A DNA stretch of 64,000 nt from Hyphomicrobium sp. (GCA_035547255.1 DASZVX010000156.1:708-64707); one strand, 5' to 3'. Counted from the first letter of the stretch, positions 91 through 16,810 are shown. The notes: generated from the sequence alone by a model not told the origin. A program made the numbers and translations.

Positions 91-93
91 GGA

Positions 94-1006: not shown

Positions 1007-1578
1007 AACCTGATCGTCCGAAAAGGGTTGATGAGATCGCTGACGGCATCGGGAATGCGCGCGCCATCGTGGCCGATTTCCTGCGGATCGCGATGCTCGT
1101 ACCAGTGCGCCGTCAGCATGAGGATCGCGTGCTTCAACGGCGCCGGAACGCTCGACGCATCGTCGCCAAATCCTGCCGTTAGATCTATTTCGATACCTGT
1201 CGCGGCGAGTCCCGGCAGCGGCGGCGCGCTGTTGTTCCAGACGAGCCGCGGCGGCCGCGATGCGAGATCGACGAGATAGCTCTGGTCTGAGACGATCGTC
1301 GGATTCCCTGATGCATCCTTGACGCGGACGCCGCCGACCGAGCGCAACGGTGCGATCGGCAAATCGATCTCGCGGCACTTCGGCCAGCGATCGAGCGTCA
1401 GCTTCCACGACTGCGTGATGAGGGCCAGCGACAACGCCGTCTCGATATGCAGCCGCGACGTCAGGATGAGGCTGCCGATCAGCACGTCTTCGGCATCGGT
1501 GTTGATGCGCATGTGCGCCTTGGCATCGGCGACCGTCACCGGCTCCACCGCCGGTGGGCTCGTCATCGCGAGAGACAT
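1003..1578 (-). CDS. GTA head-tail connector (gp6-like, g6)
   Basis: PPAVEPVTVADAKAHMRI...ED.LI..LI...R.HIE...VPAPLKHAILMLTAHWYEHR; AAGGA RBS before ATG 1578. Confidence 0.92.
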   Translation of the reverse strand: MSLAMTSPPAVEPVTVADAKAHMRINTDAEDVLIGSLILTSRLHIETALSLALITQSWKLTLDRWPKCREIDLPIAPLRSVGGVRVKDASGNPTIVSDQSYLVDLASRPPRLVWNNSAPPLPGLAATGIEIDLTAGFGDDASSVPAPLKHAILMLTAHWYEHRDPQEIGHDGARIPDAVSDLINPFRTIRL

Positions 1579-1592
1579 TGCGTGTCCTTGTT

Positions 1593-1638
1593 GATTGCGC
1601 TCGGCGACTCGCGTTCCGCGAGCCGGCCGCCGAGCGCG
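1593..1638. repeat. Palindromic repeat family B, copy 1
   Basis: GCGCTCGGCG-A-CTCGCG-ttc-CGCGAG-CCGGC-CGCCGAGCGC. Confidence 0.8.
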
Positions 1639-1670
1639 TTTGATGTTGCTCTGTTTCGTGCAACCAGTGC

Positions 1671-1738
1671 GCGCCTTGCGGCCGGCTCCGCGAAGCGGAG
1701 TCGCAAGGCGCAACCAAGAGGGTCGCCGAGCGCAAATA
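1671..1738. repeat. Palindromic repeat family B, copy 2 (inverted, full plus half unit)
   Basis: Reverse complement tatttgcgctcggcgac-cctcttggtt-gcgccttgcgactccgcttcgcggagccggccgcaaggcgc. Confidence 0.8.
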
Positions 1739-1821
1739 AGGAAGAATACGGGGCCACCGCGATGCGATGACCCCGCACGCTTTCCGCGCGGGCGGGAGGG
1801 GGAACCCGCGGGAAAGTTCTT

Positions 1822-1867
1822 GATTGCGCCCGGCGACTCCCCTGCGGGGAGCCGGCCGCCGAGCGCG
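1822..1867. repeat. Palindromic repeat family B, copy 3
   Basis: gattGCGCCCGGCG-A-CTCCCC-tgc-GGGGAG-CCGGC-CGCCGAGCGC. Confidence 0.8.
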
Positions 1868-1872
1868 GGTTG

Positions 1873-3114
1873 TTACTCCGCGAACTTCAGCAGCTTGATC
1901 GCGTCGAAGTCCTGGACGCCGCCGCCGACGCGCTTCGTCGTGTAGAAGAGCACGTAGGGCTTGGCGCTGTAAGGATCGCGCAGCACACGGATGCCGGCGC
2001 GGTCGACGATCAGATAGCCGCGCGAGAAGTCACCGAAGGCAATCGCCGTCGCATCTGCCGCGACGTCCGGCATGTCCTCGCTCTCGGCAACCGGATAGCC
2101 CATCAGCGACGGCCATTCGCCCGGCGCAGTCGCAGGCTGCCAGAGATAGTTGCCGTCACCGTCCTTCAGCTTACGCACGGCCGCGACCGTCGCGCGGCTC
2201 ATCATGAAGGTGCCGTTGGCGCGGTAGGGCGCCTTTGCGGCGTAGATGAGATCGAGCAGCTTGTCGCCCGGCGCCGTCGACGGGAACGCGCCTGCGGTGC
2301 CGGTCGCGAGGAAGCCGATCTTGCCCCAGGCCCACGACGCGTTGGCGACGGTGTCGTAAGCGAGAAAGCCCTTCGGCTTGTTCGATCCGTCACCGGAAAC
2401 GAACGCGGTACCTTCCTGCTCCGCGAACGCGATGCGGACTTCTTCGGCCAGCCATTCGTCGATGTTGACGATCGCGTCGTCGAGTAGAGACTGCGATGCG
2501 GCGGGCATCGCGTAGAGTTCCATCGTCGGGAACTGCAGGTTGGCGAGCGTCGGCGTCGCCGTTTGTGTGCGCGATGCGGTCTCTGCGACCCATCCGGTGC
2601 CGACGCCTGTCGTCGCGAACGGCCGGTTGTAGACCGAGCCCGAGACCTGGCGGATGCCGGAGATCGCGCGCATCGGCGAGATCGCCTTCAAAGCGCTGTT
2701 GACCGCAGCTTCGGTCTCGGCAGGCACGAGATAGCCGCCATCGGGAGCCGAGCCCGCCGACAGTGCTTTTTCCTCGATGCGTGCGAGGCGCGAAGCATCG
2801 CCGCGACGCACGTAACCGTCGAATGCTGCCTTGTGCGCGAGCTCGGATGCGGGCGATGCGCCGCCGCCTGAAAGGTTCGGGCGCGCGGATTTCAGCGCGA
2901 GATTGTCCGCGACACGTTTCGTCGAGTCGAGCGTCTCTTCGATGCGCGCCAACTTCTCCGCGACGAGCGTGTCGGAGGCCCCGCGCTGCTCGATCTCAGC
3001 CAGGCGCTGATCGTTCGTTTCCTTGAAGGCTTCGAACGCTTCGAGGAATTCTTCGAAGGCGCGCGCGGTTTCCCCGCCCGCCCCCTTCGTCTCGAGGGTG
3101 GTTGTGCCGGTCAT
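1873..3114 (-). CDS. GTA major capsid protein, HK97 fold (g5)
   Basis: DGGYLVP, TMELYAMPAASQ.LLDD, AFAEQEG.AF..GDG.NKPKGFL, LRDPYSAKPYVLFYTTKRVGGGVQDFDAIKLLKF are RcGTA-type capsid signatures; AGGA RBS. Confidence 0.97.
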   Translation of the reverse strand: MTGTTTLETKGAGGETARAFEEFLEAFEAFKETNDQRLAEIEQRGASDTLVAEKLARIEETLDSTKRVADNLALKSARPNLSGGGASPASELAHKAAFDGYVRRGDASRLARIEEKALSAGSAPDGGYLVPAETEAAVNSALKAISPMRAISGIRQVSGSVYNRPFATTGVGTGWVAETASRTQTATPTLANLQFPTMELYAMPAASQSLLDDAIVNIDEWLAEEVRIAFAEQEGTAFVSGDGSNKPKGFLAYDTVANASWAWGKIGFLATGTAGAFPSTAPGDKLLDLIYAAKAPYRANGTFMMSRATVAAVRKLKDGDGNYLWQPATAPGEWPSLMGYPVAESEDMPDVAADATAIAFGDFSRGYLIVDRAGIRVLRDPYSAKPYVLFYTTKRVGGGVQDFDAIKLLKFAE

Positions 3115-3140
3115 GTGTTGTCCTGTTGTTTAAAACCTAC

Positions 3141-3181
3141 CGTCATCCCCGGTCTTCGCGTGCGCTCGACCGAGGATGACG
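3141..3181. repeat. REP-like palindrome, family A
   Basis: cgtcatccccggtc...gaccgaggatgacg hairpin between protease and capsid genes. Confidence 0.75.
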
Positions 3182-3184
3182 AAA

Positions 3185-3883
3185 TCAAGTTGCCTGCATC
3201 ATCTGCGCGGCTTCGCGGAAACGGGAAGCGAGCACAGCATCGCCATCAAACCTCCGGCCCGCGTCCCGCAGAGCCTTCAGTCCATGAAAGCCCGAGCGGA
3301 GAACCGCGCGCGCTTCCATTCGCGTCAGCCCAGCATCCCGCGTGAGCCAGCGCTCGAATTCACGTTCGGTCGGCGAGCTGACCGCGAACGGCCGCGTCTT
3401 CACGCTTTCGACGCGCGCCCCTGGCAGCATCGGAAACGTGACGACCGAAATTTCCCAGAGATCGACTTTATCCAGGCGGCGCACACCGGTTGCCGCGTCG
3501 CGGCGCGCCTTCACCGTCTTGAAGCCGATCGAAAGTCCGTCGAGCGCACCGGCGCGCATCAGCGCCAGGACTTCGCGCGCTTTCGCGACCGCCGTCATCA
3601 GGCGACCGCGCACATAAAGCCCGCGCGTGTCCTCGCGGATCTCGTCCCAGACACCGATCGGCTCGGCCGGATCGTGCTGGAACAGCATCTTGATGCGTTG
3701 CGTGCCGCGGCTCGCTAAGCTCTCACGAAAAGCGCCCGGCGTGATGACGTCGTGACCCAAGTCCTCGCGATTGAAGAGGCTCGCGTAGCCTTCGAACACG
3801 CCGTCGTCGAGCGACTTCGCCTCAAGCGGCAAGGCCCGGCTCCGCTTGACGAGTGAGGCCGGCATCAGAAATTCTTCGATCAT
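3185..3883 (-). CDS. GTA prohead (HK97-family) maturation protease (g4)
   Basis: FEGYASLF..EDLG.D, MLFQHDP.EPIGVW, GLSIGF, LWEISVVTFPM. Confidence 0.95.
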   Translation of the reverse strand: MIEEFLMPASLVKRSRALPLEAKSLDDGVFEGYASLFNREDLGHDVITPGAFRESLASRGTQRIKMLFQHDPAEPIGVWDEIREDTRGLYVRGRLMTAVAKAREVLALMRAGALDGLSIGFKTVKARRDAATGVRRLDKVDLWEISVVTFPMLPGARVESVKTRPFAVSSPTEREFERWLTRDAGLTRMEARAVLRSGFHGLKALRDAGRRFDGDAVLASRFREAAQMMQAT

Positions 3884-5100
3884 ATAATATTTCCTGGCTT
3901 GCGCCCGTCGAGCGCGGATGAACTTCCGTATCCCGCCGCGGCGCGTTTCTCGTCGGTGGAGAGGAAGCTCGCGCCTTCGAGGCGTTTCCAGAGCGCGTCG
4001 CGTTCGGGCGCAAGGGCTTCGATCTGATCGAGGTCGGGTTTTAGCTCTATGTTTGCGCTCGGCGAGTTTTGGTTTGCGCCGGGCGACTCCGCTTCGCGGA
4101 GCCGGCCGCTCGGCGCGCTGGATGTTTCGAATGCCGGTGCTAGCCAGGATGAAAGTGCACGCGCAGTACGGTTCACCAGCGGCAGCACGGTCTGTCGCCA
4201 GAAGGCACGCTGCGCTTCCTGATAATTCGAATACGTGTTGTCGCCCGGAATGCCGAGCAGCATTGGCGGCACGCCGATCGCCAGCGCGATCTCACGCGCG
4301 GCGACGTTCTTCGCCTCGATGAAGTCCATGTCCTTCGGCGTCAGCGACAATGGCTTCCAGTCGAGACCGCCTTCGAGAAGCAGTGGACGTCCGGCCGCAC
4401 GCGCGCCCTGGAAGTTTGTTTCGAGCTCGCTCTTCAGACGCGTGAACTGCTCGTCCGTCATCTGGCCGTTCGCTGCGGCGTAGACGAGCGCGCCCGAGGG
4501 CCGTGCGGAATTGTCGAGCAGCGCCTTGTTCCAGCCCGACGCGGTGTTGTGAATGTCGATCGCGGTGGCAGCCGCCTCGATCGGGCTCATGCCATAGTGG
4601 TCGTTGACGGGATGAAAGAGCTTGAGGTGCAGGATCGGGCGCACGCCTTCGACGACATCGTCGATGAAACGCACGGATCGTCCGCAAACGGTGTACTCGT
4701 AACCCTCCGGCCAGCCATCGACGCCTGGGATCACCTTCATGCGGTCGGGGCGCAGGATGTGCAGCTCGCGCAGTTCGCCGTCGAGCGCGACGGCTTCGAC
4801 ATAAGCGTTGCCCGAGACGAGCAGGAAGCCGTACCAGGCTTCGAGAAAATCGGTGCCGGTGTGATCGAGGCTCGGGCGCCGGATGAGGGTCAGCAGCGGA
4901 TGATCCTCGATCTCGTTCGTGCCCTCGTAGAGAAGCAGCGGGATCGAAGCGGCGGCCTCCGCGATCATGCGCACCGAGCGATAGACGATGGCATTCTGCA
5001 TGAAGCCTTCGCGCGCGAAGGCCGTGTAATCGCGCGGCGCCCACACGGGCTCACCGAGGTTTTGGTAGGCGATCAAAGGGCCAACGACAGAGCCCTTGAA
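3880..5100 (-). CDS. GTA portal protein (HK97 family, g3); apparently 5'-truncated, true start unclear
   Basis: KGSVVGPLIA, REGF.QNAIVYRSVRMIAEAAA, LRPDRMKV, WNKALLDNSARPSGAL, LLEGGLDWK, GIPGDNTYSNYQEA; the TTG at 5175 used by the ORF track coincides with a -35 hexamer. Confidence 0.85.
   Translation of the reverse strand, partial: FKGSVVGPLIAYQNLGEPVWAPRDYTAFAREGFMQNAIVYRSVRMIAEAAASIPLLLYEGTNEIEDHPLLTLIRRPSLDHTGTDFLEAWYGFLLVSGNAYVEAVALDGELRELHILRPDRMKVIPGVDGWPEGYEYTVCGRSVRFIDDVVEGVRPILHLKLFHPVNDHYGMSPIEAAATAIDIHNTASGWNKALLDNSARPSGALVYAAANGQMTDEQFTRLKSELETNFQGARAAGRPLLLEGGLDWKPLSLTPKDMDFIEAKNVAAREIALAIGVPPMLLGIPGDNTYSNYQEAQRAFWRQTVLPLVNRTARALSSWLAPAFETSSAPSGRLREAESPGANQNSPSANIELKPDLDQIEALAPERDALWKRLEGASFLSTDEKRAAAGYGSSSALDGRKPGNII
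4048..4118. repeat. Palindromic repeat family B, copy 4 (half plus full unit), in-frame inside the portal gene
   Basis: tttgcgctcggcgag-ttttggttt-gcgccgggcgactccgcttcgcggagccggccgctcggcgcg encodes SAPSGRLREAESPGANQNSPSANI. Confidence 0.8.
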
Positions 5101-5102
5101 GG

Positions 5103-5140
5103 TGGGTCCCGGCTCTCCGCTATGCGTCGGCCGGGATGAC
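5103..5140. repeat. REP-like palindrome, family A, at the promoter/portal junction
   Basis: Minus strand GTCATCCCGGCCGACGCATAGCGGAGAGCCGGGACCCA. Confidence 0.75.
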
Positions 5141-5146
5141 AAGGAA

Positions 5147-5175
5147 ATGATGCCCGAGAAGCGTCGCGCTGTCAA
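5147..5175 (-). promoter_or_regulatory. Putative sigma70 promoter of the GTA operon
   Basis: TTGACA (5175-5170), 17-nt spacer, CATCAT (5152-5147). Confidence 0.6.
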
Positions 5176-5189
5176 TTGTGAAAGCGATG

Positions 5190-5222
5190 TAACGCGTTGA
5201 AAATTATAGCTATTATTGAATT
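5190..5222 (-). promoter_or_regulatory. Putative IHF site with upstream A/T tract
   Basis: TTTCAACGCGTTA (one mismatch to WATCAANNNNTTR) preceded by aataatagctataat. Confidence 0.5.
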
Positions 5223-5263
5223 TCTTCAGTCAAACCGTCCAAGTATAAATGAGCACGGACGGA

Positions 5264-5276
5264 CGGGGATAAGTTT
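5264..5276 (-). promoter_or_regulatory. DnaA-box-like 13-mer AAACTTATCCCCG (candidate GafY-like activator site)
   Basis: Identical to 13420-13432 and to the inverted copy at 13477-13489. Confidence 0.55.
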
Positions 5277-5277
5277 C

Positions 5278-5793
5278 TCACCGCTTGGCGGACACAGCGC
5301 GCTTCTTAGATTGACGCTGTTCCGGTTGGGCCGGATCCTCACCCTCTCCCAAATCCGGGATGATGTAGCGCCAGTAGTTTTCTTCCTTCACACGCCGTTC
5401 GCTCATAGCGAAGGAACTGACCGAGATGCCGGCCTGATGCACGGTCTCGGGTGAACCCGAAACGAGCGGGTGCCACCAGGGCAGATCGCGCCCCTCGCCG
5501 ACAATGCGATAGCCGCAGGTCGGCGGCAGCCATGTCAGCTCGCGCGCCCGTTTGACGTCGATCTCAAGGCAGTCGGGCATCTTGCTGAAACGATTCGCAT
5601 AATCGCGGCAGCGGCAGGTCCGGACGTTCAGCATGCTGCAGGCGAGCCGCGTCGTATAGACCTCGCTCGTGTCCTCGTCCTCAAGTTTTATCAGGCAGCA
5701 GCGGCCGCAGCCGTCGCAGAGCGATTCCCACTCGTCGGGCGACAACTCCTCAAGCGTTTTGGTCTTCCAGAACGGTTCGCTGTCGCCGCTCAA
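5278..5793 (-). CDS. ycgN: YcgN family cysteine-cluster protein (CxxCxxCC)
   Basis: [11 protein letters not shown]...[35 protein letters not shown]. Confidence 0.9.
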
Positions 5794-5983
5794 CGTCGGT
5801 CTCTCTTTCACTTGCCAGCGCGGCCGAATTGACCACAATTTGGTCGCCTTGAGACGCCTAACGTCCGGCGCCAAGGTTTGCGGTGCATCCAGCAGGGAAG
5901 CGCCGCAATTGGCGCTTGCAATGCGTCACGTGTTTTGGTGCTGAAGGGGCTTAAGCCCACGTGCCCGGCATGGCAAGCCTGAC

Positions 5984-8314
5984 TTGGCAGCCAGACGTGG
6001 TCGGGCGACGCGGCAAAGGGTGACGGTCTTGAACGACTGGTTCTTCAGGCAGGGCGGACGCGACCGTTTCATCAATTGGCTCGCCCTTGATTCGAAACTC
6101 AACTCGACGCTCGGCGAGAGCTGGTCTCGCATCAAGGATTACTGGAATGCGGGATCGAGCTATTTCGCGCGCTTCCAACTTGTCGGCTGGCGGCGGCTCC
6201 TGAATGAGTTCGCGTCCGAAAGCCTCACGATGCTGTTCGGCGGCTTCGTCGTACTCTACGGCCTCGCCCTTCCGGCGTTCCAGGAATTCGATGAGAGCAA
6301 GTTCCAGACGGGCAAGTACGCGGTCACGTTTCTCGACGTCAACGGCAACGAGATCGGCAAGCGTGGTATCCTGCACAACGACGCGGTGCCGCTCGACCAG
6401 ATTCCTGACGTCTTGATCAAGGCGACGCTCGCAACGGAAGACCGCCGCTTCTTCGAGCATTACGGCATCGACGTGTTCGGCACGCTGCGCGCGCTTCTGA
6501 CGAACGTCCAGGCGAACGAGGTCGTGCAGGGCGGCTCGACGCTGACGCAGCAGCTTGCGAAAAACCTGTTCCTCTCCTCCGAGCGCTCGCTGCAGCGAAA
6601 GATCAAGGAGCTGTTCCTCGCCTTCCTGCTCGAGAGCCGTTACTCGAAACGGCAGATCCTGAAGCTCTATTTCGATCGCGCCTACATGGGCGGCGGCACG
6701 TTCGGCGTCGAAGCGGCATCGCAGTATTATTTCGGCAAGTCGGTGCGCGACATCAACATGGCGGAAGCCGCGATGCTCGCCGGGCTCTTCAAGGCACCGA
6801 CGAAGTATTCGCCCCTCGTCGATCTTGCAGCGTCTCGCGCCCGCACGAACCAGGTGCTCGATAACCTCGTCGAAGCCGGATACTACACGGCGGGACAAGT
6901 TCATGCGGCGCGCATGAACCCGGCCAAGATCGCCGAGAACCGCACGTCGACAAGTCCGGATTGGTTCCTCGACTGGGCCTATGAAGAAGTGCAGCGCCTC
7001 GCAGAAGGCAAGGGCCAGTATGTGCTGACGGCGCGCACGACCGTCGATCTGACGCTGCAGCGGCAGGCGGAGGAAGCGCTCAGCGCCACACTGAAGCGCA
7101 ACGGCCGGGCCGACCACTTCAATTCCGGCGCCATCGTCGTGATGGAGCCCGACGGAAAGGTACGCGCCATCGTCGGCGGACCGGATTACGGCGAAAGCCA
7201 GTTCAATCGCGCAACGCACGCCAAACGCCAGCCCGGCTCGTCATTCAAGGTCTACGTCTACGCCACCGCGATGGAGAACGGCTATACGCCCGACACGATC
7301 GTGCGCGACGCCTCGCGCTCGTGCGGAAACTGGTCGCCGTCGAACTATGGCGGCGGCGGCGGTTCGGGAGCGCGAATGCCGTTATGGCAAGCGCTCGCAC
7401 GCTCGCTGAACACCGTTGCGACCGAACTTTCGTTTGCCGTCGGACGCGACAAGGTCATCGAGATGACGAAGCGGCTTGGCATCGAAGGTGTCAAGAAGAC
7501 GTGCTCTATGGCGCTCGGCGACGGCGGCATCACGGTCCTCGAGCATACCGGGGGATTTGCGACATTCGCCAACGGCGGCAAGCGCGCGATCCCCTACGGC
7601 ATTCTCGACATCACGACCTCGAAAGGCGACTTGCTCTATTCACGCGAGCGCGACGAGCCGCCACCGAAGCAGGTCGTCTCGCGGCACGTCGCCGAAGAGA
7701 TGAACCTCATGCTTTATCGCGTCGTCAACGAGGGCACCGGCGGAATGGCCAACCTCGACTTCACCAACGTCGCGGGCAAGACCGGCACATCGACGGGTCC
7801 CAAAGACGCGTGGTTCATGGGCTTCACGGGCAAGTACGTCGCCGGCGTCTGGATCGGCAACGATGACAACCATCCGATGCGCACCGGCGTCACCGGCGGC
7901 CATCAGGCGGCGCCCGTCTGGCACGATCTGATGACCGTCGCGCATACCGATATGAACATTCCAACCATTCCCGGCCTGCCGATGCATCCGCGACAGGTCG
8001 AGGAGCAGCAGCGGCTTGCAGCACTCAAAGCCGCGCAAGTTGCGGAGGGCCTCGAGCCGGCCGCGAAGGCTGCCGACACCGGCAAACCCGAAAGCATCAT
8101 GCCCGACAAGACACGCGCGGTGTTGAAGACGCTGACGGCAGCGTTGCGCAAAGCCGAAGGCGGGCCCGGAGAACCCGCCGCGTCGCCATCCTCGACAGGG
8201 ACCCCGCCGGACCCGGCGAAGGAGAAACCGGCAGCGCGGCCCGACCGGCGCGCGACACTCTTCGATACGTCCCCCGGCGAGCCGACGGCTTCGTCCGCCC
8301 AGAGCGCGCAATAG
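5984..8314 (+). CDS. Class A penicillin-binding protein (transglycosylase/transpeptidase, PBP1A family)
   Basis: EDRRFFEH.G.D, QGGSTLTQQLAKN, RQPGSSFK, S.N, KTGT. Confidence 0.93.
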   Translation: MAARRGRATRQRVTVLNDWFFRQGGRDRFINWLALDSKLNSTLGESWSRIKDYWNAGSSYFARFQLVGWRRLLNEFASESLTMLFGGFVVLYGLALPAFQEFDESKFQTGKYAVTFLDVNGNEIGKRGILHNDAVPLDQIPDVLIKATLATEDRRFFEHYGIDVFGTLRALLTNVQANEVVQGGSTLTQQLAKNLFLSSERSLQRKIKELFLAFLLESRYSKRQILKLYFDRAYMGGGTFGVEAASQYYFGKSVRDINMAEAAMLAGLFKAPTKYSPLVDLAASRARTNQVLDNLVEAGYYTAGQVHAARMNPAKIAENRTSTSPDWFLDWAYEEVQRLAEGKGQYVLTARTTVDLTLQRQAEEALSATLKRNGRADHFNSGAIVVMEPDGKVRAIVGGPDYGESQFNRATHAKRQPGSSFKVYVYATAMENGYTPDTIVRDASRSCGNWSPSNYGGGGGSGARMPLWQALARSLNTVATELSFAVGRDKVIEMTKRLGIEGVKKTCSMALGDGGITVLEHTGGFATFANGGKRAIPYGILDITTSKGDLLYSRERDEPPPKQVVSRHVAEEMNLMLYRVVNEGTGGMANLDFTNVAGKTGTSTGPKDAWFMGFTGKYVAGVWIGNDDNHPMRTGVTGGHQAAPVWHDLMTVAHTDMNIPTIPGLPMHPRQVEEQQRLAALKAAQVAEGLEPAAKAADTGKPESIMPDKTRAVLKTLTAALRKAEGGPGEPAASPSSTGTPPDPAKEKPAARPDRRATLFDTSPGEPTASSAQSAQ

Positions 8315-8327
8315 GAGGATCGCCCGA

Positions 8328-8984
8328 GTGGCGTCGATTGAGCTCAAATCCTACGATCCGCCATCGACCATGGGGCTCGTGCGCAGCATCGTCGCGATCA
8401 TCTTCCGCGCGATCAGCCTGATCCTGACCGTCGCGCTCGCAACGGGCGTCGGCGTCTGGTCCAGCCGCTATATGATATCGCGCGGATCGCCGCTCTCCGT
8501 CGACACGTACGGTCCCTGGCAGCACTGGCGTGACCTCGGTCGCGAAAGCGCCGATCCTTATACGAAAGCCCAACTCGTATCGACCGGCAAGCTCAGGATC
8601 TCGGCCGACAGCGCCGGTATTTTCGAGGCACGCACCGACTCGCAAGGCGCGCGGCTCCACTCATCGTGCAATTATAAAATCGAGGGTGCGAGCCTGCCGG
8701 GACTCTGGTGGAGCCTCGCGGTCTTCGATTCCCGCGGCCGTCTGATCCGCAACGACGCGGACCGTTACGATTTCACCGCCGATACGATCGCGCCCAATCC
8801 GAACGGGTCGTTCGTCGTCACACTCGGCCGCGATGCGCGTCCGGGCAACTGGATTCCGACGGGCGGCGCGGGGCGCCTCGTGCTCGTCTTCACGGTACTC
8901 GATCCGGCGAACGGTCTTTCGGATGAGCAGCGAGCCGAGCGCAACAAGCGTCTCCCCATCATCACGCGGGAGAGCTGCTCATGA
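8328..8984 (+). CDS. DUF1214-like protein
   Basis: ADPY, TDSQG.RL...C.Y.I.G, WWSL, ARPGNW.P; typical position after the PBP. Confidence 0.7.
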   Translation: MASIELKSYDPPSTMGLVRSIVAIIFRAISLILTVALATGVGVWSSRYMISRGSPLSVDTYGPWQHWRDLGRESADPYTKAQLVSTGKLRISADSAGIFEARTDSQGARLHSSCNYKIEGASLPGLWWSLAVFDSRGRLIRNDADRYDFTADTIAPNPNGSFVVTLGRDARPGNWIPTGGAGRLVLVFTVLDPANGLSDEQRAERNKRLPIITRESCS

Positions 8985-9538
8985 ACTTCTTCCGGCGCAT
9001 CGACTGGCGGCTGCTGTTGATCTTCGTCCTGGTGGCGGCGATCGTGCACATCGTCTCGACCTTCCTTGCGGTCAACGATCAGCGCGGATCGGCGTATGCC
9101 CGGCTGGCGCATATCCTGCCGCACAACACGATGACGATCCTCGGTCCGGTCGAACCGCAGCAAGCGCTTCTGCCGTACCTGTCGCCGGACGCGCGCTATG
9201 CCTTCTGTCCATTCGATACGGCCGACACGACGATGCGCGTTCATGCTCTGCTGCCCGATCTCGGATGGACGGTCGGCGTTTATGCTCCGGACGGCACCAG
9301 TCTCTATTTCGCGGCCGCCTCGTCCGAGCGCGAGACGACGATCAATCTGTCGATCATTCCCGCCGATGATCGCTTCCTCGGTTTGTCCGGCGAAGCCCAG
9401 CAGGCCGCCGATACCGACCAGACCATTGCCGCGCCAAAGGGCTTCATCGTCGTGCGCGCACCCGACAGGGGCGAGCCTTATCGCTCCGAGACGCAAACCA
9501 TTCTTGAAAAAGCATCGTGTGCTGCGCGGCGGACCTAG
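8981..9538 (+). CDS. DUF1254-like membrane-anchored protein
   Basis: N-terminal TM, LP...P...YAFC.FD, W.V.VY; coupled to upstream gene. Confidence 0.65.
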   Translation: MNFFRRIDWRLLLIFVLVAAIVHIVSTFLAVNDQRGSAYARLAHILPHNTMTILGPVEPQQALLPYLSPDARYAFCPFDTADTTMRVHALLPDLGWTVGVYAPDGTSLYFAAASSERETTINLSIIPADDRFLGLSGEAQQAADTDQTIAAPKGFIVVRAPDRGEPYRSETQTILEKASCAARRT

Positions 9539-9612
9539 AGCCTTCGTTCGGTCGTGCTTCTTATTGGAAAATTATTGGAAAACCGGTTTCCACTTTTCCG
9601 GAAGCACTCCAG
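9535..9612. repeat. Rhizobial intergenic mosaic (RIME/Bru-RS-like) palindromic element
   Basis: CTAGAG...GAAAACCGGTTTCCACTTTTCCGGAAGCACTCCAG core, with internal duplication of ttattggaaaa. Confidence 0.65.
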
Positions 9613-9630
9613 CGGCCGCGATCCAAACGG

Positions 9631-9813
9631 TCAGCTTTCGATCTCGAGCGTGTCGCGGTGAGGCTTGCCATTCTTCGGCTTTGGCGGTTCCGGTTCCGGA
9701 AGCCGTTCGTAGCGCACGCCTGGAAAGAAGACGATATCCGCCGTCCTGCTCGCGTTTATCGGCAAAGGCCCGGTTCTTCGCGGCGTGCCCCTGAATTCCA
9801 CGATTGTTGCCAT
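9631..9813 (-). CDS. Small hypothetical protein (60 aa)
   Basis: GGGGAG RBS; ADIVFFPGVRYER motif resembling small alphaproteobacterial proteins. Confidence 0.7.
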   Translation of the reverse strand: MATIVEFRGTPRRTGPLPINASRTADIVFFPGVRYERLPEPEPPKPKNGKPHRDTLEIES

Positions 9814-10019
9814 GCGTGGTCTCCCCAAGACACGGAGATCACTCCGTGCAAGCGGCTCCCCCGTCATGAGGCTCTCAACCACTCGGTTATGACGCCGTAC
9901 AAAAACGGTCGTGGCTCGAATGCGTTGTGGCCGCTCGAATCAGCGCATGATTCGATTAGGCTCGTGGAGCCATTAATGGAGTGTAAACCGGTCGAAGGCG
10001 CACGCAACGCACGTCGCGA

Positions 10020-10364
10020 CTATGGCAGCAATTCATCGCCGAGGAAGTGCCGCCCGTCGCGATCCTCGATCTCGATGATCCAGATGTCGCTGTCGAAGCT
10101 CGCCTCGCGCTTCAAAAGCGCCTCGGCCTCAGCCTCCGGAACGAAGCCCTTGTCGAAGCGCGACACCCAGCGCCGGTCGATATCGGCATCGTCGAGACCT
10201 GCAGGTGCTGGTGAGTAGACGGCGGCCGTCAGGTCCTGGCGAACGACCTTGATGAAGATCGCACCGGCATCGTCGTCACCGTGGCGCGCAACGACGCCGC
10301 TCGCACCATTGACCACGCAGCGGCGCAGATAAGCTTTGACCCAGATTTCGGATTTGAGACGCAT
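10020..10364 (-). CDS. DUF1491 family protein
   Basis: MRLKSEIWVKAYLRR...GD..AGAIFIKV...FD.D.WIIEIEDR.GRHFL. Confidence 0.88.
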   Translation of the reverse strand: MRLKSEIWVKAYLRRCVVNGASGVVARHGDDDAGAIFIKVVRQDLTAAVYSPAPAGLDDADIDRRWVSRFDKGFVPEAEAEALLKREASFDSDIWIIEIEDRDGRHFLGDELLP

Positions 10365-10396
10365 GGCTGTACTTAGCAGCAAGCTGAACGCTGAGC

Positions 10397-11125
10397 CTAG
10401 CGTGCGGCGGAGCGCGAAGGCGCGGCACGGTGCGCCTTGGCCTGGCCTTGCAGCCGGATCAGGCGGCTCATCATCGGGCCCGAGATGCGACCGCTCGGCT
10501 TGAGCTTCTGCTCGGCCTCGAAGTCGCGGATCGAACGCGCGAGTTCCGGCGTCAGCGCACCGCCCGCGGCTCCCGTCTGATAGCCGAGCGCGCTCAGCTT
10601 CTGCTTGACGTCGCGCACCAGTGCTTCGCCGTCGGGCGAAATGGTTTTTCCGGGACGCGCATTGTTCTGCTCAAGCGAGGAGGAGCCGAGCACGATCTGA
10701 CTGAGCAGCGGTTCGCTCGGCTTGCCGGTCAGCACAAGGCCGTTGTCGTACTCGTAGGCGAAAATCGCGGCGCGCGTGACGAGGCCCGCAACTCCGTCAG
10801 GCTGGCCGACCTCGTAACCGCGCGCATCAAGCTCGCGCTGAATACCGCGTGTCAGCTCGGCAGTATTGACGTCTTCCTTCGGTGCCGTCGCTGGCGGATC
10901 GGTCGGTCCGGGAAGCGGCGGCACTACGGCCGGCGGCGATACCGGACCGGTGCCAATGCCCGGCCCTTCGACCCATCCGGCGCGTGAGGGCAGACCGCCG
11001 GTCTCGATCGAATTTCCTTGGCCGGTCGCGGTCCCCTTACCCTGAAATGCGACCATGTTAACCGCAACGCTGAGCGTCATCAGCACGGAAGCGCCGATCG
11101 CGATCTTGCGGTCCAATCCGGTCAT
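10397..11125 (-). CDS. Peptidoglycan-binding domain protein (two PG_binding_1 repeats)
   Basis: IQRELDARGY...DGVAG..TRAAI..YE...GL..TG and KQKLSALGY...SIRDFE....L..SGRIS; N-terminal TM. Confidence 0.8.
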   Translation of the reverse strand: MTGLDRKIAIGASVLMTLSVAVNMVAFQGKGTATGQGNSIETGGLPSRAGWVEGPGIGTGPVSPPAVVPPLPGPTDPPATAPKEDVNTAELTRGIQRELDARGYEVGQPDGVAGLVTRAAIFAYEYDNGLVLTGKPSEPLLSQIVLGSSSLEQNNARPGKTISPDGEALVRDVKQKLSALGYQTGAAGGALTPELARSIRDFEAEQKLKPSGRISGPMMSRLIRLQGQAKAHRAAPSRSAAR

Positions 11126-11180
11126 GTCCAACGGCCCCGTTCGCATTCTACAGGTGTCGACACGACTATGGCGGCCAGCC

Positions 11181-11197
11181 GTTAAGGTCTTCTTAAC
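11181..11197. promoter_or_regulatory. CtrA box
   Basis: GTTAA-ggtcttc-TTAAC, full TTAA-N7-TTAAC consensus on both strands, between divergent genes. Confidence 0.7.
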
Positions 11198-11386
11198 TGT
11201 CGGATCAACTATCGAAACGGCGCTTTCGAGATACAAAGCATTTTATTGAAATTCGCCTCAAATTTGCGTCGAAGACGGTTCGAATTGTACCGCACACGCT
11301 AGCGTGGTCTTGAATTCGCCCTGGTATGACATCCGCATAGGTGAGCCTCGTCGTTCTCGCCCCCTAGATTTGCGAAGGTCGAAACC

Positions 11387-11764
11387 ATGGGTTTGTTGCG
11401 TATCGCCACAGTCGTCGCCATCGGGGTTGCCGTGCTGCCCTCCGATCACGACCAACAGCAGCGCCTCTACGAGCGCGCCGGCGCCACCGCCCAATGGGTT
11501 GTCACATTCTGCGACCGCAATCCGGGGACGTGCGCCAAGGGCTCGGAGTTGTGGTCACAATTCGTTGCCAAGGCCCAATTTGGCGCCAAACTTGCCTACG
11601 ACATGATGCGCGAAAGGCAGGTAGCCGGAAGCGAGACGGCTGCGGCTGATCATGACGATCGGCCGTACAAGCCGGCTGTCCTCCAGCGCGAGATGGGGAC
11701 GCTGACCCCGCTCGACAAAGAACCAGCGTGGCGCGGCAAAAAAGCAAGCAAAGGCAGCATCTGA
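11387..11764 (+). CDS. DUF5330-like protein
   Basis: FCDRNP.TC, GTLTP.D.EPAWRG; adjacent to sufE. Confidence 0.7.
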   Translation: MGLLRIATVVAIGVAVLPSDHDQQQRLYERAGATAQWVVTFCDRNPGTCAKGSELWSQFVAKAQFGAKLAYDMMRERQVAGSETAAADHDDRPYKPAVLQREMGTLTPLDKEPAWRGKKASKGSI

Positions 11765-11851
11765 GGCCAATTCGAGCCTTGCCCCGGCGGGGTCTGGCCA
11801 CCTATTTTTAGGTGGCACCCCGATGAACGGGGTTGCAGCTTGGATTTTCCG

Positions 11852-12280
11852 ATGACGATTGACGACATCCGCGCCGATTTCGCGGTCCTCGACGATTGGG
11901 AGGACCGCTACCGGTACGTGATCGAGCTGGGGCGGGGGCTGCCGGCATTTCCGGAAGAGCTGCGCACAGAGGTGAACAAAGTTCGCGGTTGCACCAGCCA
12001 GGTCTGGCTTGCCACCAAACCGGAGCGAAGCGCGAACTCTCCGAAAGCCGACCATATGGCGATGCAGGGCACAAGCGACGCCCTGATCGTCCAAGGATTG
12101 GTTGCCGTGCTCTTCGCCATCTACGACGGCAAGACGCTGGACGAGATCGTCAGGACCGACGCCCAAAGCATCTTCGCGGAACTTGGGCTCAGCGAGCACC
12201 TGACGCAGCAACGCTCGAACGGCTTGGCCTCGATGGTGAAGCGCATCCGCGCCGACGCCGAGATGATGCTCGCGGCCTGA
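11852..12280 (+). CDS. sufE: SufE family Fe-S/cysteine desulfurase activator
   Basis: DDWEDRYRYVIELG, VRGCTSQVW, SDALIV.GL, LT.QRSNGL. Confidence 0.93.
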   Translation: MTIDDIRADFAVLDDWEDRYRYVIELGRGLPAFPEELRTEVNKVRGCTSQVWLATKPERSANSPKADHMAMQGTSDALIVQGLVAVLFAIYDGKTLDEIVRTDAQSIFAELGLSEHLTQQRSNGLASMVKRIRADAEMMLAA

Positions 12281-12853
12281 TCACACCACGTCCGGTTCAA
12301 TTGCCGGACGGTAGTCGCCCGTTCCCCAGTGGCGAACGCGGACAGGCATCGCGCCGAGCGGCCTTTCCTCTCTCAGCAGCCCGTAGTGGCGGGCGAGCTG
12401 GCGCAATGCGATCTGCAGAATGATCTTGCCGGAGCGCTGCGGCCATCCGCTTGCCTTCTCGCTGGCTTCGAGCCCTTTCAGGTGACAGCAGACGTCGATG
12501 AGGACGCCGGCGAGGTCAGGTCCAACGCTCGAAAGTGCGCGGCGGACACGTTCGCGCGCAGCGATGATTGAATCCCGCATATCCGGTCCGATGTCCGGCG
12601 CACGCCTGCCGCCTCCACCGCCCGCGAGAAGCAGCGACCAGTTGGCGGTGACGCGCGGCGTCATCTCAGCGAACCAGAAATCGGCGCGGAGCCGCTCGCC
12701 CGCATCGACTTCTTCATCCGACAACATCGGCCGCCCGTCCTTGTCCTTGCGACGCGCGAGCCACGCCAGCGGGCTTTCCTTTAGGTCGCGTTCCGGAGCG
12801 TGATGTGGCTCGGCTTGCGCTGCCGAAGCCGCGCAGCATCGTCTCGTTCCCAT
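12281..12853 (-). CDS. gafZ: DUF6456 protein, GafZ-like (GafA C-terminal half) GTA activator/antiterminator
   Basis: ESPLAWLARRKD..G, AGERLR.DF, PR.TANW, DVCC.LKGLE..E...GWP.RSGK..L..AL..LARHYG; GAGGT RBS; sufE/mucR context. Confidence 0.75.
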   Translation of the reverse strand: MGTRRCCAASAAQAEPHHAPERDLKESPLAWLARRKDKDGRPMLSDEEVDAGERLRADFWFAEMTPRVTANWSLLLAGGGGGRRAPDIGPDMRDSIIAARERVRRALSSVGPDLAGVLIDVCCHLKGLEASEKASGWPQRSGKIILQIALRQLARHYGLLREERPLGAMPVRVRHWGTGDYRPAIEPDVV

Positions 12854-12892
12854 CGTGTTACCTCATGCATTAATTGGCGTTCGCCGCGAGTG

Positions 12893-13291
12893 TCAGTTCG
12901 GCCGCTTTTCAGCGCGCATGACGAGTGTCGGCAGCGCCCAGCCGAGAAGATCCAAGGTTCGGTCCAAGACCGGATCGTCGCGCCGATACTCGACCTTCAG
13001 GCATCCATAGGAGACGGTCGTGCGATCGCGTCCGAACATTGCGCCGACGTCCGTCAGGGTCATGCCGCAGGAAACGTGCGCAAGATACATCGCGATCTGG
13101 CGCGCAAATGCGATGTCCTTGGCACCGCGCGTCCCGTGCCACAACGCACCGGTCTCGAGACCGAAAACGCTCGACATCGCAAGATCGAGTGCGAGACGCT
13201 CCTGCCGATAGCGCTGCTGTTCCGCGACACCTGGAAACGCCGGACCACGCGGTCGCGTCTTCAATGCCAAGTTGCGAGAGACTTCAAGCAT
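12893..13291 (-). CDS. gafY: DnaA domain IV-like HTH protein, GafY-like (GafA N-terminal half)
   Basis: AFARQIAMYLAHV...TLTDVG..FGRDRTTV.Y.C..VE..RDD resembles the DnaA C-terminal HTH; directly upstream of the DUF6456 gene. Confidence 0.75.
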   Translation of the reverse strand: MLEVSRNLALKTRPRGPAFPGVAEQQRYRQERLALDLAMSSVFGLETGALWHGTRGAKDIAFARQIAMYLAHVSCGMTLTDVGAMFGRDRTTVSYGCLKVEYRRDDPVLDRTLDLLGWALPTLVMRAEKRPN

Positions 13292-13418
13292 GTATCTTTC
13301 TCATGGATTGAACGGTTCCTCGAAGCGCCATGCGCTTCGTCGCTGCCGGCGCCGACCCAGTGGAGTTTTATCGTCTGTCGCAACGGCAATGACGGAGAAG
13401 ATAGGGTCCGCACGAACA

Positions 13419-13490
13419 GCGGGGATAAGTTTTTTTGCGCACGCCCACGTTCACCTTACCGGCAAAACATCCCTGCAAACTTATCCCCGC
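13419..13490. promoter_or_regulatory. Inverted pair of DnaA-box-like 13-mers
   Basis: gCGGGGATAAGTTT (13419-13432) and AAACTTATCCCCGc (13477-13490). Confidence 0.6.
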
Positions 13491-13519
13491 GCCGGAGCGC
13501 TGCAGCACATTGCGGCGTC

Positions 13520-13843
13520 ATGCAACACAACGTCTCGATACGGAACATCACGATACGGACAAACGACTCCGCCACCGGTCGTTTCAATTCGAAGGCCAGA
13601 TATAACGATGACCTGCGGCGCGTATTGCCGCTATGGCCGCACGAGCTGGCCGACCGGAGTCTCGAGGGTCGAAAGACGCTTATCGCGGCGCTTGATCGCG
13701 CGCTGCGGAGAGAGCGGCGTCATGGTCAGGCGGGCCATCCCGCCTATGACATCGAACGCCACGCATTGCTTAGTCGGATGTTGAAGCAGGAACGCGCGGC
13801 ACTTACGGCGCTCCAATCCCGCGTTCGCCGTTCGCAGCGATGA
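13520..13843 (+). CDS. DUF6477-like protein (similar in position to the gafA-divergent GTA gene)
   Basis: DLRRVLPL...L.RALRRERR.G.AG..AYDI.RH..L...L..E; divergent from the gafY-like gene. Confidence 0.6.
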   Translation: MQHNVSIRNITIRTNDSATGRFNSKARYNDDLRRVLPLWPHELADRSLEGRKTLIAALDRALRRERRHGQAGHPAYDIERHALLSRMLKQERAALTALQSRVRRSQR

Positions 13844-13873
13844 TGCGCGTGATATCCCGGCGGGTGAGGACCG

Positions 13874-14275
13874 TCAGCGGCGCGTACCGAGGCCCATCTT
13901 CTTCGCGAGCTGCGAGCGGGCATTGGCGTAGTTTGGCGCGACCATCGGGTAGTCCGGCGGCAAACCCCACTTCTCGCGATATTCCTCGGGCGACAAGTTG
14001 TAGTGCGTCCGCAGATGCCGTTTCAGCGATTTGAACTTCTTTCCGTCCTCAAGACAGATGATGTAGTCCGGCATCACGGATTTCTTGACCGCGATCTTCG
14101 GTTTCGTTTCTTCACGCTCCTGCGGGACGCTGCGCCCGGCTGCGCGGCTCAGGGCGGCATGGGTCTCTGCAATCAGCCCCGGCAGGTCTGTCGATGAAAT
14201 CGAATTGTTACTGACATAGGCAGCAACGATCGTGGCAGTGATTGTCACGAGCTCAGGCTGGGCCGGGCTGTCCAT
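13874..14275 (-). CDS. mucR: MucR/Ros family transcriptional regulator
   Basis: [71 protein letters not shown]. Confidence 0.96.
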
Positions 14276-14647
14276 CGGTATGTCTTCCGCTTCTTCTTTC
14301 AGGCCGGTTTCCAAGGCAGGCATAGGAGACAGGTAGAGCGTCGCATTGAGGCATACAGCCGGCTTAGATCTTAGCCATATTCCGGTATTGTCTGCATCAG
14401 CACAGAAATGAACTCGCTTTCACTTATGAAAGCTTTGACTACAGGTAATCTCCATTGTCAATTGGTGGCCCGCACCACTTTACGCCATCACTAATTCTTG
14501 GCCCGAGGCGCGCTTAATTGTGACATTGCTTCCTCCAGCCCCTCGTTGACGCGGACGTCCGGGCGGTCAAGAAACCGTGCCAAGCCACGACCAGACTGCT
14601 TGGGCCAGACTGCTTGCTGGCTCCTGAATGAAAGGCTCCCTAATCCG

Positions 14648-16810
14648 ATGACCGCGCCGATCGTCTCCGCTTCCCCCGCTCAGGATACCGCGACCGCACA
14701 GGCCACGCCGCCAGTGGCACGGCGCGTCCCCGTGACGGCGACCCACCATGGCGTTGTGCTCACCGACGATTATGCGTGGCTGCGCGCCGAGAACTGGCAG
14801 GAGGTCATGCGCAAGCCCGCGACGCTCGCAGCCGACATCCGAGCGCATCTCGAAGCCGAGAACGCCTACACGGACGCGACGCTCGCAGATACGAAAGCGC
14901 TGCAGGAAACGCTGTTCCAAGAGATGAAGGCGCGGCTCAAGGAAGACGACCAGCAAGTGCCGCAGCCGGACGGGCCTTTCGAATACTTCCCGCGCTTCGT
15001 CAAAGGCGGACAGTATCCGCAGCTTTGCCGGATGCCGCGCGGAGGTTCGATAGACGACGCGCAGGTGCTCCTCGACGGCAACGCCGAAGCGGAAGGCAAG
15101 AGCTATTGGGATCTCGGCGGCACCGCGCATTCGAACGACCATACGCTGCTCGCCTACGCAACCGACGACAAGGGCTCGGAGCTTTATACGATCCGCATTC
15201 GCGATCTCGCGACCGGCAAAAACCTCTCCGACGAAATTCCCGACACGCGCGGCGGCGTTCAGTGGGCGAACGACGGCAAGACGCTATTCTACATCAAGGT
15301 CGACGAGCATCAGCGCCCGCTCTTCGTCTATCGCCACGTCATCGGGACGCCGGTCGGCGATGACGTCCTCGTCTATGAAGAGCAAGACTCCGGATTTTTC
15401 GTCGGGCTGTCGGCGACGCAATCGCAGAAATACATCCTGATCGACATTCACGACCATGAGACGAGCGAAGTCCGGCTGATCGATGCCGACGATCCGCTGG
15501 AGGCACCGCAGGTCGTCGCGCGCCGACGCGTCGGGCATCAGTACGACGTCGAGCATCATGGATCGCATCTCGTCATCACGACGAACTCGGACGGCGCGGA
15601 AGACTTCCGTATCGTGACGGCGCCCGTACATGCCCCAAACGAGGCCAACTGGCGCGAGATCGTTCCGCATAAGCCGGGCCGCCTGCTCATCGAGGTCAAC
15701 ATTCTTGCAAACCACATGGCGCGTCTGGAGCGCGAGGAAAGCCTGCCGCGCATCGTCGTGACGCCGCTCAAGACGGATGCCCAGGGCGACCTGCTCGATC
15801 GCTCGGGCGAGCACACGATCGCGTTCGACGAAGAAGCCTATGCACTCGGATTGAGCGCCGGGTACGAATTCGACACGACGCGTGTCCGCTTCACATACTC
15901 GTCGCTGACAACGCCCGCCGAAACCTACGACTACGACATGGCAACGCGCGAGCGGGTTCTGCGCAAGCGCCAGGAAGTGCCGAGCGGGCATAATCCGGCC
16001 GACTACGTGACGAGGCGGCTGCTCGCACCCGCCAAGGACGGCGCGCTCGTTCCCGTTACCCTGCTCTACAAGAAGACGACGCCACTCGACGGTTCAGCAC
16101 CCCTGTTCCTCTACGGCTACGGCGCCTACGGCATTTCGATGCCCGCATCGTTCTCGACGGCGCGGCTGTCGCTCGTCAATCGCGGCTTCATTTTTGCGAT
16201 CGCGCACATTCGCGGCGGCAAGGACAAGGGCTTCCGCTGGTACACCGACGGCAAGATGAAGAAGAAGAAAAACACCTTCACGGACTTCGTCGCGGCCGGC
16301 GAGTATCTCGTCGCGCAAGGCTTCACACAGCGCGGGCGCATCGTTGCGAACGGCGGTTCGGCGGGCGGCATGCTGATGGGCGCCATCGCAAACATAGCGC
16401 CGGATCTCTTTCTCAGCATCATCGCCGACGTGCCATTCGTCGACGTGCTGAACACGATGCTCGACAAGGATCTGCCGCTGACGCCGCCGGAATGGCCGGA
16501 GTGGGGAAATCCGCTGACGAGCAAAGACGACTTCGACAACATCAGAAGCTATTCGCCTTACGATAACGTCGAAGCGAAACGCTATCCGCACATCCTGGCC
16601 TTGGCCGGTCTGACCGATCCGCGCGTCACATATTGGGAACCGGCGAAGTGGATCGCGAAACTTCGCGCACTCAATACGAGCGACAATCTCGTGCTGCTCA
16701 AGACCAACATGGGTGCGGGCCACGGCGGCGCGTCGGGCCGTTTCGACGGTCTAAAGGACACCGCATTCAATTACGCGTTCGCGCTGAAAGTAGCCGGCAT
16801 TACGATGTGA
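14648..16810 (+). CDS. ptrB: Oligopeptidase B (S9A prolyl oligopeptidase family)
   Basis: DDYAWLR, LYGYGAYG, GGSAGG, VPFVDV, EW.EWGNP, DPRVTYWEPAKW, AGHGGASGRF. Confidence 0.93.
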   Translation: MTAPIVSASPAQDTATAQATPPVARRVPVTATHHGVVLTDDYAWLRAENWQEVMRKPATLAADIRAHLEAENAYTDATLADTKALQETLFQEMKARLKEDDQQVPQPDGPFEYFPRFVKGGQYPQLCRMPRGGSIDDAQVLLDGNAEAEGKSYWDLGGTAHSNDHTLLAYATDDKGSELYTIRIRDLATGKNLSDEIPDTRGGVQWANDGKTLFYIKVDEHQRPLFVYRHVIGTPVGDDVLVYEEQDSGFFVGLSATQSQKYILIDIHDHETSEVRLIDADDPLEAPQVVARRRVGHQYDVEHHGSHLVITTNSDGAEDFRIVTAPVHAPNEANWREIVPHKPGRLLIEVNILANHMARLEREESLPRIVVTPLKTDAQGDLLDRSGEHTIAFDEEAYALGLSAGYEFDTTRVRFTYSSLTTPAETYDYDMATRERVLRKRQEVPSGHNPADYVTRRLLAPAKDGALVPVTLLYKKTTPLDGSAPLFLYGYGAYGISMPASFSTARLSLVNRGFIFAIAHIRGGKDKGFRWYTDGKMKKKKNTFTDFVAAGEYLVAQGFTQRGRIVANGGSAGGMLMGAIANIAPDLFLSIIADVPFVDVLNTMLDKDLPLTPPEWPEWGNPLTSKDDFDNIRSYSPYDNVEAKRYPHILALAGLTDPRVTYWEPAKWIAKLRALNTSDNLVLLKTNMGAGHGGASGRFDGLKDTAFNYAFALKVAGITM

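Follow-up and report, generated by a model that had tools for sequence, protein, structure and literature searches.

In alphaproteobacteria, gene transfer agents (GTAs) are switched on directly by GafA or by its split form, GafY and GafZ. What DNA sequence do these proteins read? In both studies of the Caulobacter system, no motif could be predicted (PMC9632790, PMC11150451). The question is raised again by a 64,000-nt stretch of a Hyphomicrobium sp. genome (GCA_035547255.1 DASZVX010000156.1:708-64707; the whole stretch is hereafter the window), in which a 13-mer, AAACTTATCCCCG, is found upstream of a GTA head operon and on both sides of a divergent intergenic region headed by a gafY-like gene. 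A preliminary description of this DNA had reported three exact copies and had taken them for the site of the GafY-like activator. The copies are indeed present at 5264..5276 (minus strand), 13420..13432 (minus) and 13477..13489 (plus), and each faces its own downstream gene, respectively, the portal operon, the gafY-like gene (12893..13291, minus) and an open reading frame (ORF) of 107 aa (13520..13843, plus). In 100 dinucleotide-preserving shuffles, exact copies numbered 0 on average and 0 at maximum, against three in the window. The analysis below indicates that the 13-mer belongs, very probably, to a real and conserved promoter element of a GTA regulon.

The assembly scanned for further copies spans 3.47 Mb and is 88% complete. 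Five exact copies and eight with a single mismatch were found, while a reversed control pattern, at up to one mismatch, yielded none in forward and one in reverse orientation. Downstream of 11 of the 13 copies lies an xAxxxT hexamer (TATCTT, TATACT, TAAAAT, TAGACT, CATAAT or CACATT), at a distance of exactly 16 nt in ten cases and of 17 nt in one. Because this distance is fixed, the 13-mer occupies the -35 position relative to the hexamer. The full unit reads aaAsTTATCCCCg-N16-TAnnnT, and its spacing is kept in relatives as well. Scanning the genome with a weight matrix for box plus hexamer returned 13 sites at or above 22.8 bits, followed by a gap down to the noise; random scatter of the motif, which would have undone the earlier proposal, is thus not what is seen. 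Bare copies of the 9-mer core TTATCCCCG without the A-rich prefix mostly lack a hexamer and are located within long ORFs. The fixed distance to the -10 and the missing sigma-70 -35 are the features of promoters in which an activator box stands in place of the -35, and the element, here called the Y-box (consensus aaAsTTATCCCCg), is by this geometry the -35 element of a promoter class that lacks a sigma-70 -35. A separate reading, as an extracytoplasmic function sigma promoter with AAC in its -35, was rejected as unlikely, since AAACTT and the hexamer are 23 nt apart.

Individual promoters bear this placement out. On the gafY side, TATCTT (13398..13403, minus) lies 16 nt past the second copy and is conserved in relatives as TATCTT, TATCCT or TATTCT; a promoter search found no sigma-70 -35/-10 pair in the gafY intergenic region, and the intergenic alignment of relatives contained no further conserved promoter block ahead of the gafY ATG. 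On the opposite side, CACATT (13506..13511, plus) lies 16 nt past the third copy and is followed, 8 nt on, by the ATG of the 107-aa ORF at 13520. Of 109 loci, 88 conserve this gene in divergent orientation to gafY. It had been called DUF6477-like, a label that suits it as a distant relative: the protein encoded in the window has no Pfam match itself, but 5 of 25 orthologues match PF20083 (best E 7.6e-5). In about 18 species its ATG stands 7-8 nt past the -10-like hexamer with no Shine-Dalgarno sequence, so that the mRNA is apparently leaderless or nearly so. Given this leaderless-type position of the ATG, the box is fixed at -35 for the DUF6477-like promoter. At a DUF2793 tail-fibre-like gene elsewhere in the genome the ATG is 37 nt past the hexamer, which therefore leaves no space for another promoter. 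The copy ahead of the GTA operon also has a -10-like hexamer of its own, TATACT (5242..5247, minus), 16 nt downstream.

Between the two divergent boxes lies a conserved block, GTTCACCTTA (TAAGGTGAAC on the gafY strand; 13449..13458, plus), which in Hyphomicrobium is 17 nt upstream of the gafY-side box. In most other genera (gafY promoters L079-L143), a conserved GTTCAC is found 2-3 nt past the box and inside the spacer. The two blocks are possibly the operator of a second regulator of gafY.

The element is conserved well beyond this genome. Upstream of gafY in 30 relatives, other families of the order included, box and spacing were found in about 28; in almost all, the box lies about 130-140 nt ahead of the gafY start and is followed by N16 and TATCTT, TATTCT or TAGGAT. 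Most Hyphomicrobium genomes also have the second, divergent copy. Among 80 named loci from Hyphomicrobiaceae and neighbouring groups (Hyphomicrobium, Methyloceanibacter, Filomicrobium, Methyloligella and others; the closest named GafY, from strain GJ21, is 89% identical, and the named close relatives assign the assembly to Hyphomicrobium), 76 carry a TTATCCCC-type box with the hexamer at N16. In the intergenic alignment the spacers diverge while the box, the -10 and the TAAGGTGAAC block stay. Over 142 distinct sites, the information content is concentrated in aaAcTTATCCCCgc, and positions 7 and 9 of the box are C and G in nearly all of them. Upstream of the terminase/portal operon, box-N16-TATACT is kept in nine Hyphomicrobium genomes, and in a genome of another family (G030, family f7) the box stands directly ahead of the portal gene. 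The phylogenetic footprinting that the preliminary description had proposed as a check gives a strong signal at both the gafY and the terminase/portal loci.

The same holds for numbers of sites per genome. A stringent pattern gave 1-7 sites in 22 of 24 Hyphomicrobium relatives, and a looser box-plus-hexamer pattern gave 2-13 sites in each of the 24, with 0-1 for reversed controls. In genomes of the order that have DnaA but no gafY-type gene, the pattern is at background.

In G030, TTATCCCCG-N16-TAnnnT occurs at least 32 times (loci L049-L063). Behind at least 12 of the copies stands a near-identical leader of about 100 nt (starting cacggacccgcttttgatgggcgcagg) ahead of unrelated genes, among them circularly permuted ATP-grasp, YkuD, GNAT and uncharacterised genes. 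This cassette looks like a multi-copy promoter-plus-leader unit that has spread through the genome. An Rfam search found no RNA family in the leader cassettes or in positions 1-16000 of the window.

Besides the GTA portal/capsid (head) operon, gafY-gafZ, the divergent 107-aa gene and the DUF2793 gene, the targets in the assembly include an alpha-2-macroglobulin gene of 1816 aa (C43:13339; L010:2786-8233:-) and a second site (C76:213) whose orthologues in two complete genomes (G021 and G001) also precede an alpha-2-macroglobulin gene. Alpha-2-macroglobulin is a periplasmic protease inhibitor, and two such loci share the GTA box promoter. Further targets are a putative membrane protein of 222 aa, encoded upstream of an OprB porin, proteins of 145 and 198 aa without assigned function, and small ORFs behind two tandem box promoters 723 bp apart (C118:3873 and 4596; L012). 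Searches of Pfam, PHROGs and NCBIfam gave no match for the target proteins of 222, 198, 145 and 70-72 aa. Both promoters of the tandem pair carry CATAATCCCCTC past the spacer, and the small ORFs share the N-terminus L[IT]ALRMPTRIRAFA; the units could be protein- or RNA-coding. What stands of the earlier activator-site reading is, then, a conserved cis-element common to the GTA and gafYZ operons and to a regulon dispersed over the genome. A far-upstream placement may hold at the GTA operon alone: the box is at the -35 position at gafY, the DUF6477-like gene and DUF2793 and, by spacing, in 11 of the 13 copies.

Which protein would read the box? The gafY-like gene encodes 132 aa with the DnaA domain IV-type helix-turn-helix (HTH) that had been ascribed to it (PF08299, Bac_DnaA_C, E 2.3e-14; structures 1J1V and 3PVP were aligned) and a recognition helix GRDRTTVSYGC. 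Directly downstream lies a gafZ-like gene (12281..12853, minus; 190 aa, DUF6456, PF20057 E 8.1e-53), and the module is flanked by sufE (11840..12280, plus; SufE match) and a mucR/ros gene (13874..14323, minus; ROS_MUCR match). Because of this gene content and synteny, the module is assigned to the split GafA (GafY/GafZ) family. Among the control genomes, the DUF6456 family (PF20057) is also found in Caulobacter.

The resemblance to a DnaA box noted earlier is borne out, the core TTATCCCCG agreeing with TTATCCACA at 7 of 9 positions; the canonical form (the 9-mer TTATCCACA, TTWTNCACA) is thereby missed. According to a review (PMC5742627), from which alone the base contacts of DnaA are taken here, DnaA recognises TnCACA through helix 434-451 and, in the minor groove, TTA through Arg399. 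The GafY helix GRDRTTVSYGC aligns on DnaA GRDHTTVLHAC, with D89-R90-T91-T92-V93 on D433-H434-T435-T436-V437 (1J1V), and throughout the GafY family His434 is replaced by Arg (RDRTT). The box retains TTATCC, and its change from ACA to CCG falls in the part read by the altered helix. The Caulobacter system, for which the comparison is based on primer sequences in the supplement of PMC11150451, offers a further parallel: the mapped GafY element ACTATGGGGA, which in its primer context is CCAATCCCCAT on the opposite strand, has ATCCCC in common with the box, and the primer for the gafYZ promoter contains CTATCCACA, flanked by GTTC/GAAC. The Caulobacter protein itself was absent among the 120 best homologues of the GafY-like protein. 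In Caulobacter, PgtaT, the gafYZ promoter itself and 18 others are bound by GafY, which also contacts sigma-70 domains 3-4 (PMC9632790, PMC11150451). On these grounds we consider it moderately probable that the GafY-like protein reads the box from the -35 position, with positive autoregulation, which the box on gafY's own promoter would fit; that this loop forms a bistable switch, as had been suggested, is speculation. As a separate observation, the 10-mer CCCGCCAATC has two mutually inverted copies in the Caulobacter PgtaT promoter, one within the mapped GafY element (other strand) and one over the annotated -35 AATCAT.

Several points weigh against GafY as the reader. Its Gly56 aligns with the minor-groove Arg399 of DnaA, and the nearly invariant Arg55 is one position off, so that the mapping is uncertain. 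The overlap with the Caulobacter element is just 6 nt. In Caulobacter, GafY binds far upstream, needs integration host factor (IHF) and allows no motif to be derived (PMC9632790, PMC11150451); placement at -35 is therefore not a documented mode of action. Box variants (CCCCG, CCCCC, CCTCG and CCCCT) were compared with the GafY helix, and since helix and box are nearly invariant and the variants follow clades, co-variation is uninformative. A class-wide draw, which mostly returned DnaA itself and left six readable GafY-type loci, does speak for GafY, with three alphaproteobacterial families in which the helix RDRTT accompanies a box plus N16-17 and TATnnT before gafY, and two families with divergent GafY helices and no box; the contrast is tiny, however, and drawn from related genomes, and nothing stated here depends on the unpublished genome G072. 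Weaker boxes also precede cysS and an M16 peptidase gene, both of which look unrelated to GTAs. Finally, the C-terminal, GafZ-equivalent domain of R. capsulatus GafA binds promoter fragments that hold the -35 (an RcGTA fragment with -35/-10 and a gafA fragment with -35), and the DnaA-like N-terminus of that protein is dispensable for autoregulation (PMC9638019).

The last of these makes GafZ, or a GafYZ complex, the main rival, because it is the GafZ-equivalent domain that binds the -35 fragments. The GafZ-like DUF6456 protein, with its sigma region 4-like HTH, or only a GafY-GafZ complex, would then read the box as a surrogate sigma region 4, with GafY acting elsewhere or non-specifically, and the box does lie exactly where sigma region 4 binds. 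It is, however, nearly a DnaA box, and the DnaA-type helix is in GafY, not in GafZ; moreover, Caulobacter GafZ is found on the main GTA promoter only and GafY on about 20, and here there are 13 sites. With a better candidate for a GafZ site at hand in the GTA-only palindrome described below, we regard this assignment as rather unlikely. That the box is a variant DnaA box bound by DnaA proper, which would couple GTA expression to replication status, is far less probable still. DnaA is a transcription factor in alphaproteobacteria, and the 7 of 9 matching positions speak for it, but the C at position 7 and the G at position 9 of almost all 142 sites lie in the stretch read as CACA by the helix of DnaA. 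Eight canonical TTATCCACA boxes exist separately in the genome, none of them at box promoters; the Y-boxes do not cluster as at an origin or dnaA promoter but stand alone, or in one case as a divergent pair, ahead of GTA-related and other genes on different contigs; and a dedicated paralogous HTH protein, which regulates this locus in the model species, is encoded on the spot. Little more can be said for the box as a repressor operator, through which a RogA/CdxB-type factor or the neighbouring MucR would silence the promoters by occluding the -35. The GTA regulons of Caulobacter are held off by repressors, the box overlaps the -35 position and mucR adjoins; yet a single asymmetric box in one orientation and at one distance to the -10, on promoters without a -35 of their own, has the signature of an activator or sigma-like contact, known RogA sites are GGAA-N4-TTCC inverted repeats, MucR favours AT-rich DNA, and the GTTCAC and TAAGGTGAAC blocks are better candidates for operators. 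We judge a repressor site improbable.

At the GTA operon the situation is more complex, as a second layer is present there and at no other box promoter. Past the box follow an IHF-like site, TTTCAA-N4-TTA (5190..5204, minus), which agrees with WATCAANNNNTTR at 8 of 9 specified positions and is conserved in 6 of 9 aligned genomes, and a sigma-70-type promoter-like sequence, TTGACA-N17-CATCAT (5147..5175, minus; 10 of 12 sigma-70 matches), whose TTGACA begins 89 bp past the box; the distance of about 90 bp to the GTA -35 given earlier was correct. That IHF binds at this operon would be inference only. The spacer of TTGACA-N17-CATCAT holds a palindrome (AGCGCGACGCT); its form AGCGYGACGCT is conserved in eight Hyphomicrobium genomes, the 20-mer of this element is unique in the genome, and, lying between -35 and -10 like the GafZ element of Caulobacter, it may be the counterpart of the latter. 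In Caulobacter, PgtaT is ordered as the GafY element (YBE) at -123..-113, the IHF element IBE1, the -35, the GafZ element between -35 and -10, and the -10 (PMC9632790, PMC11150451). Since the order of elements here mirrors that of PgtaT, the layout of the preliminary description is defensible for the GTA promoter alone; at gafY, the DUF6477-like gene and DUF2793 no such geometry is found. It is accordingly possible, though on balance doubtful, that at this one operon the box is a far-upstream activator site centred about 130 bp ahead of the start point of the TTGACA-N17-CATCAT promoter, brought to the polymerase by an IHF bend as in Caulobacter, with TATACT unused, an arrangement that is compatible with GafY at -35 elsewhere. 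The order of box, IHF-like site, -35, palindrome and -10 is conserved in Hyphomicrobium, the distance resembles that of the Caulobacter YBE with IBE1 in between, and the core has its 10 of 12 matches. Set against this, all nine aligned genomes keep TATACT or TATAAT at N16, an arrangement also seen at the other sites; with a perfect TTGACA for its -35, and not the degenerate hexamer of an activator-dependent, Caulobacter-type core, this core would, going by the -35 swap made in Caulobacter, be activator-independent; and at gafY, the DUF6477-like gene and DUF2793 a second promoter would lack either the space or a conserved block to match it.

The cluster that this promoter would control is incomplete here. 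It comprises the portal gene (3880..5175, minus; PF04860), which is first past the promoter and N-terminally truncated relative to its relatives, a protease of family S78 (3185-3883; PF04586), the capsid gene (1873-3114; PF05065) and a head-completion gene (674-1735; PF05521). Missing from the GTA operon of this assembly are a g1-like gene, the large terminase gene (terL) and about 90 codons of the portal N-terminus, which together make up about 2.35 kb, and tblastn found no terL anywhere in the 88%-complete assembly. In two complete relatives (G021, L159; G022, L160), g1, terL and the portal N-terminus lie between the same promoter and the portal gene.

Taken together, we favour with moderate confidence the view that the Y-box is a specific promoter element of the Hyphomicrobium GTA regulon with the GafY-like protein as its -35 reader. 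The Y-box would replace the sigma-70 -35 hexamer, at a set distance of 16 nt from the TAnnnT -10 that follows it. GafY, a stand-alone DnaA domain IV HTH, would bind it by reading TTA in the manner of DnaA and CCG through its Arg-bearing recognition helix and, from the -35, would act as a class II-type activator that recruits sigma-70 RNA polymerase or stabilises it, a role that fits because Caulobacter GafY contacts sigma-70 domains 3-4. On gafY's own promoter this arrangement would result in positive autoregulation, and the same box would switch on the DUF6477-like gene, the GTA packaging/head operon, the DUF2793 gene, the alpha-2-macroglobulin loci and several uncharacterised genes. At the GTA operon, the second layer, with its IHF-like site and the palindrome in TTGACA-N17-CATCAT, would offer a possible site for the GafZ-like protein. 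The element, its spacing, targets and conservation and the HTH homology are read directly from the genomes; the binder, the direction of regulation and the GTA start site in use are proposed on that basis.

A broader proposal, on which we are evenly divided, would make the box the operator of GafY/HdaB-type activators in general. It would be a DnaA box retuned from ACA to CCG, along with His434-to-Arg in an exapted DnaA domain IV, and GafY would replace the DNA contact of sigma-70 region 4 at -35. The GTA regulon so defined would extend over Hyphomicrobiaceae and at least three other alphaproteobacterial families, the Caulobacter ATCCCC core would be explained, and alpha-2-macroglobulins and several uncharacterised genes would be drawn into GTA biology.

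In the literature searched, including a 2026 paper on GTA release, no recognition motif for GafA or GafYZ was found. A search on the 9-mer returned only unrelated enterobacterial CRISPR repeats, and one for DUF6477 or Hyphomicrobium together with GTA gave nothing relevant. The box is probably the site on DNA at which the GafY activator acts and which had so far escaped definition; the novelty lies in a well-defined box of high information content and in its -35 placement. With such a conserved box to search for, the GTA regulons of a large group of environmental bacteria can be predicted from their sequences, and the pair of box and helix (CCG versus ACA; Arg versus His) is a simple test case for the retargeting of the DnaA DNA-binding domain. 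The placement also suggests that activation from -35 may be simpler, and perhaps more ancient, than the IHF loop of Caulobacter, which would then be derived. The DUF6477-like gene, the alpha-2-macroglobulins and the membrane protein beside the OprB porin are new candidates for GTA-associated functions.

Among known systems, the PhoB pho box and the MotA box of phage T4 resemble the Y-box in lying at a fixed distance from a sigma-70 -10 without a -35 consensus, and a contact with sigma region 4 would by analogy be expected here too; the proteins are unrelated, and the likeness is one of mechanism only. With the DnaA box TTATCCACA and DnaA domain IV (1J1V) it shares the first six bases, TTATCC, and the HTH fold family (DRTTV versus DHTTV). 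It departs from them in its last three bases, CCG instead of ACA, in standing as single promoter sites and not in an origin cluster, and in that the GafY-like protein has no AAA+ domain. R. capsulatus GafA (Fogg 2019; Sherlock and Fogg 2022, PMC9638019) activates the GTA directly, is autoregulated and has two DNA-binding domains, one DnaA-like at the N-terminus and one sigma-like at the C-terminus, and the Hyphomicrobiales synteny sufE - gafZ - dnaA-like gene - mucR given there (PMC9638019) is present in the window. Unlike the module described here, that GafA is one fused protein that contacts the omega subunit of RNA polymerase, binds -35 fragments through its C-terminal rather than its DnaA-like domain, and comes with no sequence motif. 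The closest parallel is the control of the GTA cluster of Caulobacter crescentus by GafY/GafZ and IHF (Gozzi 2022, PMC9632790; Tran and Le 2024, PMC11150451). It differs in having no consensus where a high-information 13-mer is found here, in an IHF-requiring GafY at about -120 where the box is the -35 element at the non-GTA promoters examined, and in a degenerate GTA core -35, AATCAT, in place of the perfect TTGACA. Its mapped YBE shares ATCCCC with the box, and the GTA operon resembles PgtaT in its order of upstream box, IHF-like site and core with a GC-rich palindrome between -35 and -10. Both species have a split GafA module of a DnaA-domain-IV-like GafY and a DUF6456 GafZ, and the promoter classes that GafY targets in Caulobacter, i.e. 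its own, the main GTA and dispersed accessory promoters, are the same classes that in Hyphomicrobium appear to share one box.

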